Source of the DNA: a virus
Direction: 5' to 3' (one strand)
Virus genome (UHGV): UHGV-0238331
Length of the DNA: 10,948 nt
The stretch's first letter is position 1. Each line of letters begins with the position of its first letter. The notes under the pieces are model-generated. The model was not told the DNA's origin. It ran no database searches and saw only the letters and a list, made by a program, of their open reading frames with translations. Both the position numbers and the translations under genes were made by a program. Shown here piece after piece: positions 2,247 to 10,948 of the stretch.

Positions 2247-2273
2247 GGAAATAAAAAGGCCACCTGCGTGGCC
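2247..2273 (-). terminator. Rho-independent terminator immediately after the methyltransferase gene
   Basis: Minus-strand RNA has a GGCCAC-GCAG-GUGGCC hairpin (2258-2273) followed by UUUUUAUUUCC. Sits between the methyltransferase stop (2280) and the S start (2213). Confidence 0.5.
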
Positions 2274-2279
2274 ACCAGA

Positions 2280-3332
2280 TTATTTCCCCACCAGCTCGTT
2301 TATCTCTTTCACTGTCTGGTTAAACCGCTCTGACTCAAGCTCAACACCTAAGGCCCGACGCCCCAGCGCCATTGCTGCTTTTATTGTGGAACCGGATCCC
2401 ATAAAGAAATCAGCAACCAGATCACCAGGTCGACTACTGGCATTGATTATTTGCCGGAGCATATCCGCCGGTTTCTCGCACGGATGTTTACCCGGGTAGA
2501 ACTGAACGGGCTTATGCGTCCAGACATCGGTATAAGGCACGGAGACTGATACGGAGAAATAGCGCCGGAGAGATTTAAACTCATCCAGCAATTCAGAATA
2601 TTTGCGATTCAGTGAATCATAAGATGCCACCAGCTGGTGGTGTGGTTGTTCCAGTTGTTGTTCCTGAAACTTCTCTGCCGCTATACGGGAAAACAGTGCC
2701 TGTAACTTCCGATAGTCAGCCTCATTCGGCAACTGCCACTGACTGGCACCAAACCAGTGGGAAACCATATTTTTCTTACCTGTAGCTTCGGCAATTTGTT
2801 TTGCCGTTATACCCAGTTCGGCACGAGCATCCCTGAAATACGATATCAGCGGTGCCATTATGTGCTGTTTGAGTTCCCTTTCTTTTGCCGCATAGCCGTC
2901 ATTTTTGGGCTGGTATGGCCCCTGATAATGTTCGGCAAACAGAATGCGCTCTGTTGCCGGGAAATACGCCCGCAGGCTTTCCTTGTTGCACCTGTTCCAG
3001 CGTCCTGACGGCTTCGCCCAGATAATGTGATTCAGCACATTAAAGCGTTCACGCATCATAATTTCGGTGTCAGATGCCAGGCGATGACCACAGAACAGGT
3101 AAAGACTTCCGGCGGGCTTCAGTACCCGCCAGAACTGCGCCAGACACTGGTCCAGCCATTTCAGGTAATCATCGTCCCCCTTCCACTGGTTATCCCAGCT
3201 CTCGGGCTTCACTTTAAAGTATGGCGGGTCTGTGACTATCAGATCGACAGAGTTTTCCGGTAAGGTCTGGATAAATTCCAGGCAATCAGCGTTGATTAAC
3301 TCACAACTGGATATTTTTACAGTATTAGCCAT
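2280..3332 (-). CDS. DNA methyltransferase, beta-class order (DPPY before the SAM motif); N6-adenine or N4-cytosine
   Basis: 350 aa. Motif IV DPPY near the N-terminus (DLIVTDPPYF) and motif I near the C-terminus (DLVADFFMGSGST), with a roughly 200-aa central region presumed to recognise the target. Located between Q/pR' and the lysis cassette. Confidence 0.85.
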   Translation of the reverse strand: MANTVKISSCELINADCLEFIQTLPENSVDLIVTDPPYFKVKPESWDNQWKGDDDYLKWLDQCLAQFWRVLKPAGSLYLFCGHRLASDTEIMMRERFNVLNHIIWAKPSGRWNRCNKESLRAYFPATERILFAEHYQGPYQPKNDGYAAKERELKQHIMAPLISYFRDARAELGITAKQIAEATGKKNMVSHWFGASQWQLPNEADYRKLQALFSRIAAEKFQEQQLEQPHHQLVASYDSLNRKYSELLDEFKSLRRYFSVSVSVPYTDVWTHKPVQFYPGKHPCEKPADMLRQIINASSRPGDLVADFFMGSGSTIKAAMALGRRALGVELESERFNQTVKEINELVGK

Positions 3333-3826: not shown

Positions 3827-3868
3827 CTGTAAAAATTCTTCTAACGTCAGGCATAAAACGCCCATCGT

Positions 3869-3904
3869 TAGTGCGAATTTACCACGGATTCGGGAAAAAT
3901 CAAC
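3869..3904 (-). promoter_or_regulatory. Late promoter pR'-like, with the Q-utilisation region expected just downstream
   Basis: On the minus strand: TTGATT (-35, complement of 3898-3903), 16-bp spacer, TAAATT (-10, complement of 3876-3881), then CGCACTAACGATGGGCG, resembling lambda pR' (TAAATT followed by TGACTCAACGATGGG). Begins 5 bp after the Q stop. Confidence 0.55.
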
Positions 3905-3908
3905 AACA

Positions 3909-4730
3909 CTATCGCGTTACCCTCTTTAACTGCCGCTCCGCCCATGCCTCCTCAATGTCAAACCGAACCACCAACGTATCGTAAAAACGCTTCACTGATT
4001 TTTTCCACGTATCAAGAGTGATAGCGCTCGTCACTTTGCATATGGCATTAAACGCCTCTGTTGACGGCAATCTTTCATAGCCACGACCACCACAACGCTG
4101 GCAGTCTCTGATAACAGGCATACCACGTTTTACCGACTCTTCACGATGAATGGCGACACCACGCCCACGGCAATCCTTACAGGCGGTGGAGACCTCACCC
4201 TTTCCCCCGCATTCAGGACAGGCAACTTTTACCACTTCCCGGACTTTTTTCCATTCTTCCCAGTAAGACGGATACACACCCTTTGTACACTTTGCCCATA
4301 CCGGCGGTTTACCATCCGGATACTGGACCTTGTTTGTAAAAACTACGCTTTCAATAAATTTTTCCCCATGGCAACAAGGGCACTGCTTTTTACTCGCTGC
4401 GCTGCGGGCATAATCCTCAAAAGCATACGAAGCCATAATGCGCATCACTGCCGGTTTTATTTCTGCCGGAAGTTTTCTTAACGCCGCCACGCGATCGCAC
4501 TGACTTAATGCATAATCTGCCAGTAATTCTGTTGCCCGCGCCCTGTCATTCATACTAATGCCCATTTTCCCCAGGAACGCAGAAAATCCCATCTCAGCAC
4601 GGTTTTGTGTCATACCCTGCGCAGCCATCACATCAGTGATACTCAGCGTATCTTTTGACGTCGAGACGGATGCATCAGTCAGGCCAGGCGATTTTGGGGA
4701 GTAGTATTTCGGTAAATCTTCCAGCTTCAT
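3909..4730 (-). CDS. Q: Late-gene antiterminator Q (lambda Q family) with an expanded zinc-finger region
   Basis: 273 aa. Clear blocks of similarity to lambda Q (207 aa) from memory: YSPKSP, TDVMAAQGM, ASYAFEDYARSAA, CQRCGGRGYERLPSTEAF, FYDTLVV. Start forms an ATGA overlap with the rusA stop. Confidence 0.85.
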   Translation of the reverse strand: MKLEDLPKYYSPKSPGLTDASVSTSKDTLSITDVMAAQGMTQNRAEMGFSAFLGKMGISMNDRARATELLADYALSQCDRVAALRKLPAEIKPAVMRIMASYAFEDYARSAASKKQCPCCHGEKFIESVVFTNKVQYPDGKPPVWAKCTKGVYPSYWEEWKKVREVVKVACPECGGKGEVSTACKDCRGRGVAIHREESVKRGMPVIRDCQRCGGRGYERLPSTEAFNAICKVTSAITLDTWKKSVKRFYDTLVVRFDIEEAWAERQLKRVTR

Positions 4731-9207: not shown

Positions 9208-9681
9208 CTATTTCATAAAAATAATCCAGTGGGTTTTATCGTTTTTTCCTGTTCGTTGACCGATAACAGGTTTTCTGTCGGTCAGTACCAATATCTGGCG
9301 AACAGGTATTTGCGTTTCATTCCATTTAAAAATCAGAACGCCGGATGGACGCAACACACGAAAGGCTTCTTTAAATCCCTGCCGCAAATCATCACGCTAG
9401 GTATCTTTATTCAGCCGTCCATATTTCTTTCCCATCCAGGCGTTATCACCAACACGCTCAAGATGCGGAGGGTCGAATATAACCATCGAAAAAGATGCGT
9501 CTGCAAATGGTAGTGCACGAAAATCAGCTATCAGATCAGGACTGATAATCAGACATCGTCCATCACACAATGTGTGCTCTTCCTTTCTGATATCGCTAAA
9601 TATCGCCAGGTCGTCATTCTTATTGAACCAGAACATGCGACTGCCACAGCACATATCAAGAATGGTTGCCGGTGCACTCAC
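9208..9681 (-). pseudogene. Small phage Dam-like SAM-dependent DNA methyltransferase interrupted by an in-frame amber (TAG) codon
   Basis: The 94-codon ORF (GTG start at 9681) carries motif I (ILDMCCGSR) and motif IV (DPPH) and stops at TAG (complement of 9397-9399). The same frame then runs 58 more sense codons (RDDLRQGFKEAFRVLRPSGVLIFKWNETQ...) to a stop at 9208-9210, giving about 153 codons in total. Confidence 0.6.
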
Positions 9682-10100
9682 TGCGCTACCTCCTGAAAAT
9701 TACCCTGATAGAAAGCCAGTACACGCTGCATAGCTTCGCTCTTCCGGCACTCGCGACAGATTATATTCAGGCGCCTGTCGTAGCGGCGTATTTCTCCGTC
9801 TGGTAATGACCAGATAAGGTCCGGATCAACCGCAGATGGTTTCTTCGGCTTTGCCCTTGAGAGCTTTTTACGGGCATTTTGCCAGTCCTTACGCGCCTGT
9901 TCAGACGGGAATAACCCGTAATCAGAGTTGTATACATCGCCACTGGCAACCAGCTCTCTGGCCAGAACGCTCATCAGATATCTTGTTGCCCCAGTTTTAG
10001 TTTCCAGTTGTCGTAACGTCTCGCGCCCACTCTGGCGTACGAGTTCAACAACCTGCCCTTTAATTTTTTCTCGCTCTTCTTGTGTAAAAACTTTTGCCAC
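9678..10100 (-). CDS. ren: Ren-like protein (homolog of lambda Ren), 140 aa
   Basis: GTG start 4 nt after AGGAGG. C-terminus NIICRECRKSEAMQRVLAFY resembles lambda Ren NLVFKECRQSAAMKRVLAVY, and a central TGAT-containing helix region is also similar. Comparison is from memory. Confidence 0.6.
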   Translation of the reverse strand: MAKVFTQEEREKIKGQVVELVRQSGRETLRQLETKTGATRYLMSVLARELVASGDVYNSDYGLFPSEQARKDWQNARKKLSRAKPKKPSAVDPDLIWSLPDGEIRRYDRRLNIICRECRKSEAMQRVLAFYQGNFQEVAQ

Positions 10101-10140
10101 AAGTCCTCCTGAAAATTACCTCATGATCTGAAATAAACAC

Positions 10141-10948
10141 TTACCCCCTGAAGCCCGGCGGAATTTCGGTGTCCGGCTCGGAAATATGATTTACACATCG
10201 CTGTACAGGCGAACGCCCCAGGCGGATGACCAGTTCGTCCCATTTTTCGCGAAGCTTTAACGGGCTCATGATGTTTTTTACCCAGAATGGATCCCGCTGT
10301 ACCCGACCAAACATTTCACAAATTTGTCTGTGGCTTCTGCCATCCAGCATCCGCATTGTGCGCACGTCATTGGCCCAGGCAGTCCAGTTAGGCTCTTTTG
10401 GTCGCATGATCTCGCCATCATCACTGGCTGCCTGTTCGTAGAGACCCACGATCCGCCCCCAGATCCACTGCGCACACGCCAAATCCTCCCTGCTACCCCA
10501 CTGGCGTTTTTTCGCACTAAACACAACCGCGTCGGAGTTCCGGGTTAAAAAATCCTGTTCAGTCGTCTGCGGGTCCGGTTGCGAAGCTTCCGGACGAAAA
10601 GTGTTTTTATTCTCTGTAGTAATCTCTGTTGTATTCTCTGTAAGATCATCAGGCCATTTTGACCCGATGACATTGGGTCGTTTTGAACCAATGGAGCGTT
10701 TCATTTTGACCTCTTCCATCGTGTCATTTTGACCTGATGGAGCGGCGCATTTTGAACCGATGGATTCGCTCAATTTGCCACCATCTAAAAGCTCGCTCCC
10801 ATAGTTGATCGTGTAGAAATTGGTCATATCGCGCTTTGATTTATTGAGCTTTTCACAACGCAAAAGCCCCAGCGTTTTCAGACTTGCAAACGCGCGCTTT
10901 AACGTTGACTCTGACCAGAATGGGAACTGTTCCAGCCATTGTTCCGTT
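10141..10948 (-). CDS. O: Replication initiator, lambda O-like; N-terminus lies beyond the window end
   Basis: Frame is open to position 10948 (TEQWLEQFPFWSESTLKRAFASLKTLGLLRCEKL...). C-terminal block PNWTAWANDVRTMRMLDGRSHRQICEMFGRVQRDPFWVKNIMSPLKLREKWDELVI resembles the lambda O C-terminal domain. Iterons lie inside the gene, as for ori-lambda. Confidence 0.8.
   Translation of the reverse strand, partial: TEQWLEQFPFWSESTLKRAFASLKTLGLLRCEKLNKSKRDMTNFYTINYGSELLDGGKLSESIGSKCAAPSGQNDTMEEVKMKRSIGSKRPNVIGSKWPDDLTENTTEITTENKNTFRPEASQPDPQTTEQDFLTRNSDAVVFSAKKRQWGSREDLACAQWIWGRIVGLYEQAASDDGEIMRPKEPNWTAWANDVRTMRMLDGRSHRQICEMFGRVQRDPFWVKNIMSPLKLREKWDELVIRLGRSPVQRCVNHISEPDTEIPPGFRG
10600..10790. repeat. 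Replication origin inside O: about six iterons (consensus TTTTGAcC-n-GATGG, 23-25 bp period) plus an adjacent AT-rich TCTCTGT-repeat segment
   Basis: Iteron copies start near 10657, 10681, 10704, 10728, 10750 and 10771. AT-rich segment 10600-10650 carries three TCTCTGT repeats. The iterons encode a repeated IGSK peptide in O. Confidence 0.6.

Follow-up and report, generated by a model that had tools for sequence, protein, structure and literature searches.

The O-like initiator, its origin and the gene lygF

We analysed the virus genome UHGV-0238331, a stretch of 10,948 nucleotides referred to below as the window. Its open reading frames (ORFs), together with their Pfam and PHROG matches, suggest a lambdoid prophage, of which the window spans the early-right, nin and lysis parts on the minus strand. 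The replication module is at the window end, where the 3' part of an O-like replication initiator gene (10141..10948, minus strand) is followed by a conserved spacer and by a gene for a 140-amino-acid (aa) protein of the DUF977/'LygF' family (9678..10100, minus strand). An earlier note, made from the sequence without database searches, had described this locus as a lambda-O-like initiator followed directly by a Ren-like gene, with no P-like helicase loader, and had offered two interpretations: either P was lost, leaving a replication-defective or helper-dependent prophage, or this O works with a different loader. The best reading of the comparisons described here is that the region is an intact lambdoid replication module of a loader-less form, and not a remnant of O-P-ren.

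The initiator ORF is visible from position 10947 to the stop codon at 10141-10143 (268 codons and the stop) and runs off the window end. The first approximately 53 codons and everything upstream, including the immunity region, lie beyond that end. The product matches PHROG 391, 'replication initiation O-like' (E=1.3e-85), and is 99-100% identical to proteins of 321-339 aa from phage HannyBb and from IMG/VR contigs. Residues 94-241 of the visible fragment align with residues 135-270 of lambda O (34% identity over 148 aa, E=2e-26); this C-terminal domain of the lambda O type, a predicted helical bundle, is encoded at 10225..10668 (minus strand). The alignment stops 27 residues short of the C-terminus, which agrees with the earlier observation that the last 30 or so residues diverge. 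Alignment with lambda O-P-ren had been suggested as a way to map deletion breakpoints; it yielded only the end of homology at lambda O residue 270 and no remnant of P. The Pfam family PF04492 (Phage_rep_O) has no match at E<=0.1 in the full-length HannyBb homologue, whereas lambda O matches it at 5.7e-36.

A candidate replication origin lies inside the O gene. It contains five to six iterons, copies of a unit of about 23 bp, CATCnGGnCATTTTGACCnGATG (10647..10778), which are partly dyad-symmetric and recur at a spacing of 23-24 bp in a search for direct and inverted repeats. Adjoining the iterons is an AT-rich tract (10600..10645, G+C fraction 0.30-0.35), found by composition profile and repeat search, which includes three tandem 12-bp units TATTCTCTGTAG and is the probable unwinding region. 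Iterons and AT-rich tract are placed as in ori-lambda, within O, and the origin looks intact.

The O protein ends in ...SEPDTEIPPGFRG. Its last residues, QRCVNHISEPDTEIPPGFRG-COOH (10144..10203, minus strand), form a tail that resembles the C-terminus of DnaT: 14 of 20 positions are identical to residues 160-179 of E. coli K-12 DnaT (70%), and 18 of 20 are similar. The consensus shared with DnaT is ...VNxISxPDxxIPxGFRG-COOH, and the motif ...[IV]SxPDxxIPxGF[RK]G at the initiator end, by which membership in this group was judged, is present in the window O. The tail is unstructured in the AlphaFold2 model. Judged by domain content, the window O is not a full DnaT. With the NCBIfam DnaT model NF002770, whose cut-off is 201 bits, it reaches 16.6 bits and is matched in the tail alone; DnaT entries in PDB are aligned with the tail only; and Pfam PF17948, the three-helix bundle of DnaT, has no match in the window O. 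Phage records name this O 'Primosomal protein I', the former name of DnaT, a label that is an over-annotation.

A tblastn search of phage genomes with the tail found it at the C-termini of diverse initiators, namely those of the window O type, the Tritos/75-02 type, Gifsy-1/2, SPN3UB, the SPN1S group, Klebsiella phages, and YdaU of Rac. It is joined to at least four initiator bodies (the window O, Tritos/75-02, Gifsy and SPN1S/DnaT types). The SPN1S initiator (2248-3063 of its locus) contains a whole DnaT C-terminal domain, 63% identical to DnaT 86-179, and matches PF17948. In several phages homology to the window begins at the last 20 or so codons of O, and the tail, the spacer and lygF thus move as one block.

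The O stop codon and the GTG start of lygF are separated by a spacer of 40 bp (10101..10140, minus strand), which bears the ribosome-binding site AGGAGG and is conserved in IMG/VR loci and E. coli genomes. The same spacer stands behind two different O bodies in IMG/VR loci. The lygF product matches Pfam PF06163 (E=7e-29) and PHROG 142 (E=1.8e-47). The latter is the family 'Ren-like exclusion protein', to which lambda Ren also belongs (E=1.6e-41), while lambda Ren gives no match to the Pfam DUF977 family. Pairwise BLAST of LygF and lambda Ren aligns the C-terminal motif alone (12 of 20 positions identical). In a MAFFT alignment the two are 26% identical; LygF begins with a 10-aa extension and has two insertions, of about 10 and 19 aa, in its central part, corresponding to the extra central segment noted earlier. 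Both proteins have a winged-helix-like N-terminal part and the C-terminal motif N-x4-ECR-x-S-x2-M-x-R-x-L (ECRxSxxMxRVL in LygF). By profile and motif LygF is a remote homologue of lambda Ren, and the eventuality that the 140-aa protein is not Ren-related did not hold. In the literature 'LygF' was found as an annotation label only, and a search for resistance to RexAB exclusion yielded no data on DUF977/LygF proteins.

The gene lygF is flanked by two exact copies of the 16-mer GGTAATTTTCAGGAGG in direct orientation (10105-10120 and 9689-9704, minus strand), where 0.01 would be expected by chance. Both are ribosome-binding regions, each just 5' of a GTG start, and the repeat may be a module-junction or recombination sequence. 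In HannyBb, a second fragment resembling lambda Ren was observed 3' of Q (37447-37615, 41% identity over 53 aa), where the annotation shows nothing but very short hypothetical ORFs; it is likely the remnant of a decayed gene.

Loader genes and the tail in related modules

No homologue of lambda P, E. coli DnaC or DnaB, P22 gp12 or two phage DnaC-like proteins was found by tblastn anywhere in the window, as the earlier note had supposed for P. As positive controls, lambda, P22, Stx phage 75/02 and Gifsy-2 gave the expected matches to these queries, and Pfam identified no loader or helicase among the other window ORFs. Over 1.6 kb the sequence shares 93-94% identity with PhiR42_1, HannyBb and mEp460_ev081, phages in which O is in each case followed directly by 'LygF'. 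In the complete genomes of HannyBb and PhiR42_1 no loader or helicase is annotated or detectable by tblastn with P, DnaC, DnaB and gp12. The genes of PhiR42_1, among them DicC-type cro, RelBE, Rem and YdfU, mark the element as related to the cryptic prophage Qin but intact.

The plaque-forming phage mEp460 has a PHROG 391 O of the same family, ending ...IPAGFRG; next come an ORF resembling transcriptional activators and a Dam methylase, and the whole genome contains no loader. In work that confirms lytic and lysogenic growth for its 26 focus phages, mEp460 was sequenced and served as an annotated model phage (PMC9836094). No loader was found within approximately 5.8 kb around the tail-bearing initiator of Salmonella phage SPN1S. 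A 221-nt probe, reaching from the O end across the spacer into the start of lygF, was searched at >=80% coverage in 5,426 complete E. coli genomes, 1,914 of which (about 35%) contain the junction.

The DNA encoding IPPGFRG followed by a stop codon was then taken as a pattern to scan IMG/VR. At least 120 loci contain it, and all those listed are C-termini of initiator-like ORFs with the extended motif; where complete, these ORFs encode 260-408 aa. The next gene was tallied in the 98 listed loci with at least 1.5 kb downstream. It is DnaC-like in 51 of the 98, starting 3-12 nt past the stop codon, and lygF at +41 nt, with no loader, in 39. The remaining 8 have neither DnaC-like gene nor lygF in this position, and none of the 98 has a P-like or DnaB-like gene. 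Initiators 92-100% identical to the window O occur in both states, with DnaC (L101, L129) and without it (L021, L026, L074 and others). The tail sequence was tried as a marker of the loader-less state and rejected: in E. coli loader-less and DnaC-bearing loci alike end in IPPGFRG, and variation at this position is limited to Gifsy-type loci of Salmonella.

The reverse sampling, from the loader genes, gave the same association. Among the sampled DnaC-like genes, 73 of 74 related to that of 75/02 and 75 of 76 of the Gifsy-2 type (69 strict matches and 6 near-variants) are preceded by the tail, making 148 of 150 for both types together; of the 78 sampled relatives of lambda P none is. All 78 O proteins encoded 5' of these P relatives in IMG/VR end in ...[PS]K[LF]DLTNTDWIYGV[DE]L, and the terminal peptide ...DLTNTDWIYGV[DE]L may be a P-specific counterpart of the DnaT-like tail. 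When loci were sampled from lygF, all 46 loader-less ones had the tail 41 nt upstream.

The two states differ in their arrangement. DnaC-bearing modules consist of O, 7 nt, the dnaC-like gene, a DUF1627 ORF, 15 nt, and lygF with an ATG start. In loader-less modules O is followed by the conserved 40-nt spacer with its own AGGAGG and by lygF with a GTG start. The Ren-like DUF977 gene is a regular downstream member of this module family, with or without a phage DnaC gene. Simple deletion of the dnaC-DUF1627 segment was considered and rejected, as comparison with loci L054 and L101 shows no clean scar and both the ribosome-binding site and the start codon (GTG vs ATG) 5' of lygF differ. The DUF1627 protein of Stx phage 75/02 (256 aa, 3833-4600 of its locus) has two winged-helix-like parts, stands between the dnaC-like gene and lygF, and weakly matches the Ren-like PHROG 142 (E=4e-8). 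The DnaC-bearing module may thus carry two Ren-related genes.

In the E. coli host dnaC starts 2 nt after dnaT, and host DnaC is 49-51% identical to the phage DnaC-like proteins. A common origin of the host dnaT-dnaC operon and the phage initiator-dnaC modules is consistent with these sequences, because SPN1S carries a DnaT C-terminal domain and because gene order and tight spacing are the same.

The last 20 codons of O were compared in 48 loader-less loci, where 11 nucleotide versions encode 3 amino acid versions. Seven codons at the end are set by the search pattern and 13 are unconstrained. In the latter the variation is synonymous, except for replacements of the I/V and N/T kind only. On this pattern of codon changes, the tail in the loader-less form is under purifying selection. 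This C-terminal domain of O also exists as a second allele, found in mEp460 among others, which ends in ...REDPYFKxSYDNVDYSQIP[AT]GFRG and has only the last seven residues, IPxGFRG, in common with the window tail, which suggests that these residues are the functional core of the tail.

Proposed recruitment of the host helicase

We consider it likely that the module is a loader-less form of the DnaC-type module, which uses the DnaB-DnaC complex of the host, possibly through the tail. The window O would then be a member of the class of DnaC-dependent initiators. It would open its own origin and, having no phage DnaC, bring the DnaB-DnaC complex of the host to it; the likeliest candidate for the contact element is the DnaT-like tail, and the Ren-like gene would take no part in helicase loading. 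To judge from its distribution and conservation, the loader-less form is old and under selection. More tentatively, we propose that ...[IV]SxPDxxIPxGFRG-COOH may be a transferable motif that docks on the DnaC-type loader or on the DnaB-DnaC complex. This motif is common to host DnaT and many enterobacterial phage initiators, while P-using initiators carry ...DLTNTDWIYGVDL instead.

The possibility that the module is degraded, a P or DnaC-type loader having been deleted and the prophage being replication-defective or helper-dependent, seems very improbable. There is indeed no loader gene in the window, the adjoining methylase gene has an in-frame stop, and a past loss is conceivable, as close relatives of the window O (L101, L129) have the dnaC-like and DUF1627 genes between O and lygF. 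However, the identical spacer follows two O bodies and is present in 39 listed IMG/VR contigs and 1,914 E. coli genomes, and the complete phage genomes that bear the junction have no loader, nor does mEp460 with its related O. P was never found with this O class: it follows none of the 98 listed tail-bearing initiators, and in reverse none of the 78 P-linked O proteins carries the tail. The apparent purifying selection on the tail and the intact look of the origin also speak against decay. Of the two interpretations put forward in the earlier note, a different loader fits the evidence, and a defective prophage that has lost P does not. Lower still, and close to negligible, is the probability that LygF takes the place of P, as an adaptor or as the loader of the host helicase. 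It is true that at all loader-less E. coli loci lygF begins at a constant distance of 41 nt from the end of O, and that tail, spacer and lygF form one block. On the other hand, lygF is equally present in DnaC-bearing modules and is absent beside the loader-less initiators of SPN1S and mEp460, and for these reasons LygF is unlikely to be the missing loader. Neither an ATPase nor a known loader domain is present in it, the one recognisable part being a winged-helix-like N-terminus, and lambda ren is dispensable for lambda replication.

Two further explanations assign the tail another role, and we regard both as unlikely, though less so than decay of the module. In one of them the tail, as a mimic of DnaT, connects the phage initiator with the restart primosome of the host: it binds host DnaT by hetero-oligomerisation, or PriA or PriB, so that DnaB-DnaC comes indirectly. 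Some phage initiators hold the whole DnaT C-terminal domain, such as that of SPN1S (63% identity, PF17948). This domain of DnaT docks on PriA (PMC13377028), and the only roles experimentally assigned to the DnaT tail are self-association (PMC5314882) and cooperative binding of single-stranded DNA (PMC4132743). However, the window O has a lambda-type C-terminal domain and no DnaT bundle, so that a tail-bundle contact would need the host protein. Moreover, the tail stands almost universally just 5' of DnaC-type genes and is missing from P-linked O proteins, which points to the loader as the co-varying partner; neither point is decisive. In the other explanation, the tail serves self-assembly or the holding of single-stranded DNA, the helicase is recruited via the helical C-terminal domain or host DnaA, and the association of the tail with DnaC is an inherited gene order. 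The same biochemistry of the DnaT tail would agree with this, as would the non-independence of the samples by phylogeny. The window O and lambda O have the lambda-type C-terminal domain in common, and in lambda O the C-terminal part is the one that engages the loader-helicase complex. What makes this explanation doubtful is that the tail is joined to at least four unrelated bodies and moves together with the gene downstream, not with the initiator body, while P-linked O proteins end in another peptide that is just as conserved. Such a pattern would be expected of a docking peptide specific for its partner.

Several points weigh against recruitment of DnaB-DnaC through the tail by an intact module. 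All the support is comparative. The IMG/VR and E. coli samples consist mostly of closely related enterobacterial prophages, so that the tail/DnaC events are not independent and common descent of a dnaT-dnaC-like cassette is possible; an additional homologue search added little diversity, its matches being mostly partial proteins no longer than 243 aa. The nonsense codon in the adjoining methylase gene indicates some decay, and with the first 53 or so codons of O and the immunity region outside the window the intactness of this particular copy cannot be certified. The last 18-26 residues of DnaT have been assigned to trimerisation (Szymanski 2013, as cited in PMC5314882) and to cooperative binding of single-stranded DNA (PMC4132743). 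Finally, a 2026 paper on the preprimosome names the N-terminal domain of DnaT, not the tail, as the candidate recruiter of DnaB/DnaC (PMC13377028). In that paper the DnaT C-terminal domain is modelled from 4OU7 only, residues 84-153, and the tail is outside the models (PMC13377028).

The step in which the preprimosome recruits DnaB/DnaC is called unknown in the same structural study (PMC13377028). If the docking proposal is true, the phage modules point to the element by which the PriA-PriB-DnaT preprimosome performs it, and loader-less phages such as the present one would be DnaT mimics that hijack host DnaC directly. The tail is a cheaply testable candidate for the contact between DnaC-dependent initiators and the helicase-loader complex, and possibly for that of DnaT itself. 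At this locus the main outcome is corrective: an O without P is no sign of a crippled prophage but a standard module, carried by roughly a third of E. coli genomes, and the completeness of such prophages should not be judged with lambda as the standard.

Neighbouring genes and comparison with known systems

The gene order on the minus strand, from the window end, is the O-like initiator, the DUF977 gene, a split DNA methylase and small nin-type ORFs, followed by a P63C-domain protein, a DUF968/HNH protein, RusA, the antiterminator Q and a second methylase, and finally by holin, lysozyme, Rz and a DUF4406 protein. The DNA methyltransferase gene 3' of lygF (9208..9681, minus strand) is broken into two in-frame pieces by a single in-frame TAG (9397-9399). 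PHROG 954/11564 match both pieces, which correspond to positions 51-141 and 146-201 of the PHROG 954 profile, and the N-terminal 50 or so positions are missing. The gene is probably a pseudogene; it is a neighbour of the module and no part of replication. No RNA genes were found in the window by tRNA and Rfam scans. No complete E. coli genome covers >=80% of the window, the best matches being mosaic, with 88-93% identity. A near-perfect palindrome of 19 bp, GTGCGACCATGGTCGCACA, occurs in two copies 121 bp apart (556-574 and 677-695), beyond the lysis genes.

The module resembles lambda O-P-ren in having an initiator gene with its own origin of iterons and AT-rich tract, a homologous C-terminal domain of O (34% identity), and a gene of the Ren family 3' of the replication genes. 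However, it has no P gene, the initiator's N-terminal DNA-binding domain belongs to PHROG 391 rather than to PHROG 277 as in lambda O, the protein ends with the DnaT-like tail instead of ...DLTNTDWIYGVDL, and the Ren homologue is 44 aa longer. The proper comparator is not lambda O-P-ren, which the earlier note had used, but the arrangement O(tail)-dnaC-like-DUF1627-lygF of Rac ydaU/ydaV, Gifsy-2 and Stx 75/02.

The fusion of an O-like N-terminus with the DnaT C-terminal motif is known from DopC/DopE of Cellvibrionales and Oceanospirillales (Brezellec et al. 2017, PMC5509034). Like the window O, DopC combines an O-like part with this motif; unlike it, DopC is chromosomal and domesticated, has no iterons and is partnered with a P-like protein (PMC5509034). 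It also lacks the lambda-type C-terminal domain, which the window O has kept. Our literature search found no work joining DnaT, lambdoid phages and a helicase loader, nor the term 'initiator-solo', and the Eru classification of replication regions of Stx phages mentions neither DnaT nor DnaC.

E. coli DnaT is almost identical to the window O in its C-terminal 20 residues, and in the host dnaT-dnaC operon, as in the phage modules, a tail-bearing protein is followed by DnaC. However, the window O lacks the N-terminal domain, the acidic linker and the PF17948 bundle of DnaT, and DnaT is a restart factor, whereas the window O would be an origin-binding initiator.

The DnaC-type modules are represented by ydaU-ydaV(-ydaW) of Rac, the O/DnaC-like pair of Gifsy-2, and 'primosomal protein I'-DnaC-DUF1627-LygF of Stx 75/02. 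In these modules, too, the initiator bears the DnaT-like tail and LygF/DUF977 lies downstream, and the IMG/VR loci L101 and L129 have O proteins 92% identical to the window O. The window differs in having no dnaC-like and DUF1627 genes and in the position of lygF, which follows a 40-bp spacer and has a GTG start. The same order of O, spacer and lygF is found in HannyBb (PP925841), PhiR42_1 (PV340562), mEp460_ev081 (LR597641) and Qin-like prophages of E. coli. An immunity region of the cI/DicC type lies 5' of the module in this group, which differs from the window only in mosaic fashion, in the downstream methylase and nin-region genes. The locus is a further case of a known and very common kind of module, and its wider interest lies in the tail and in the strict association of the tail with DnaC-type loaders or with no loader at all.

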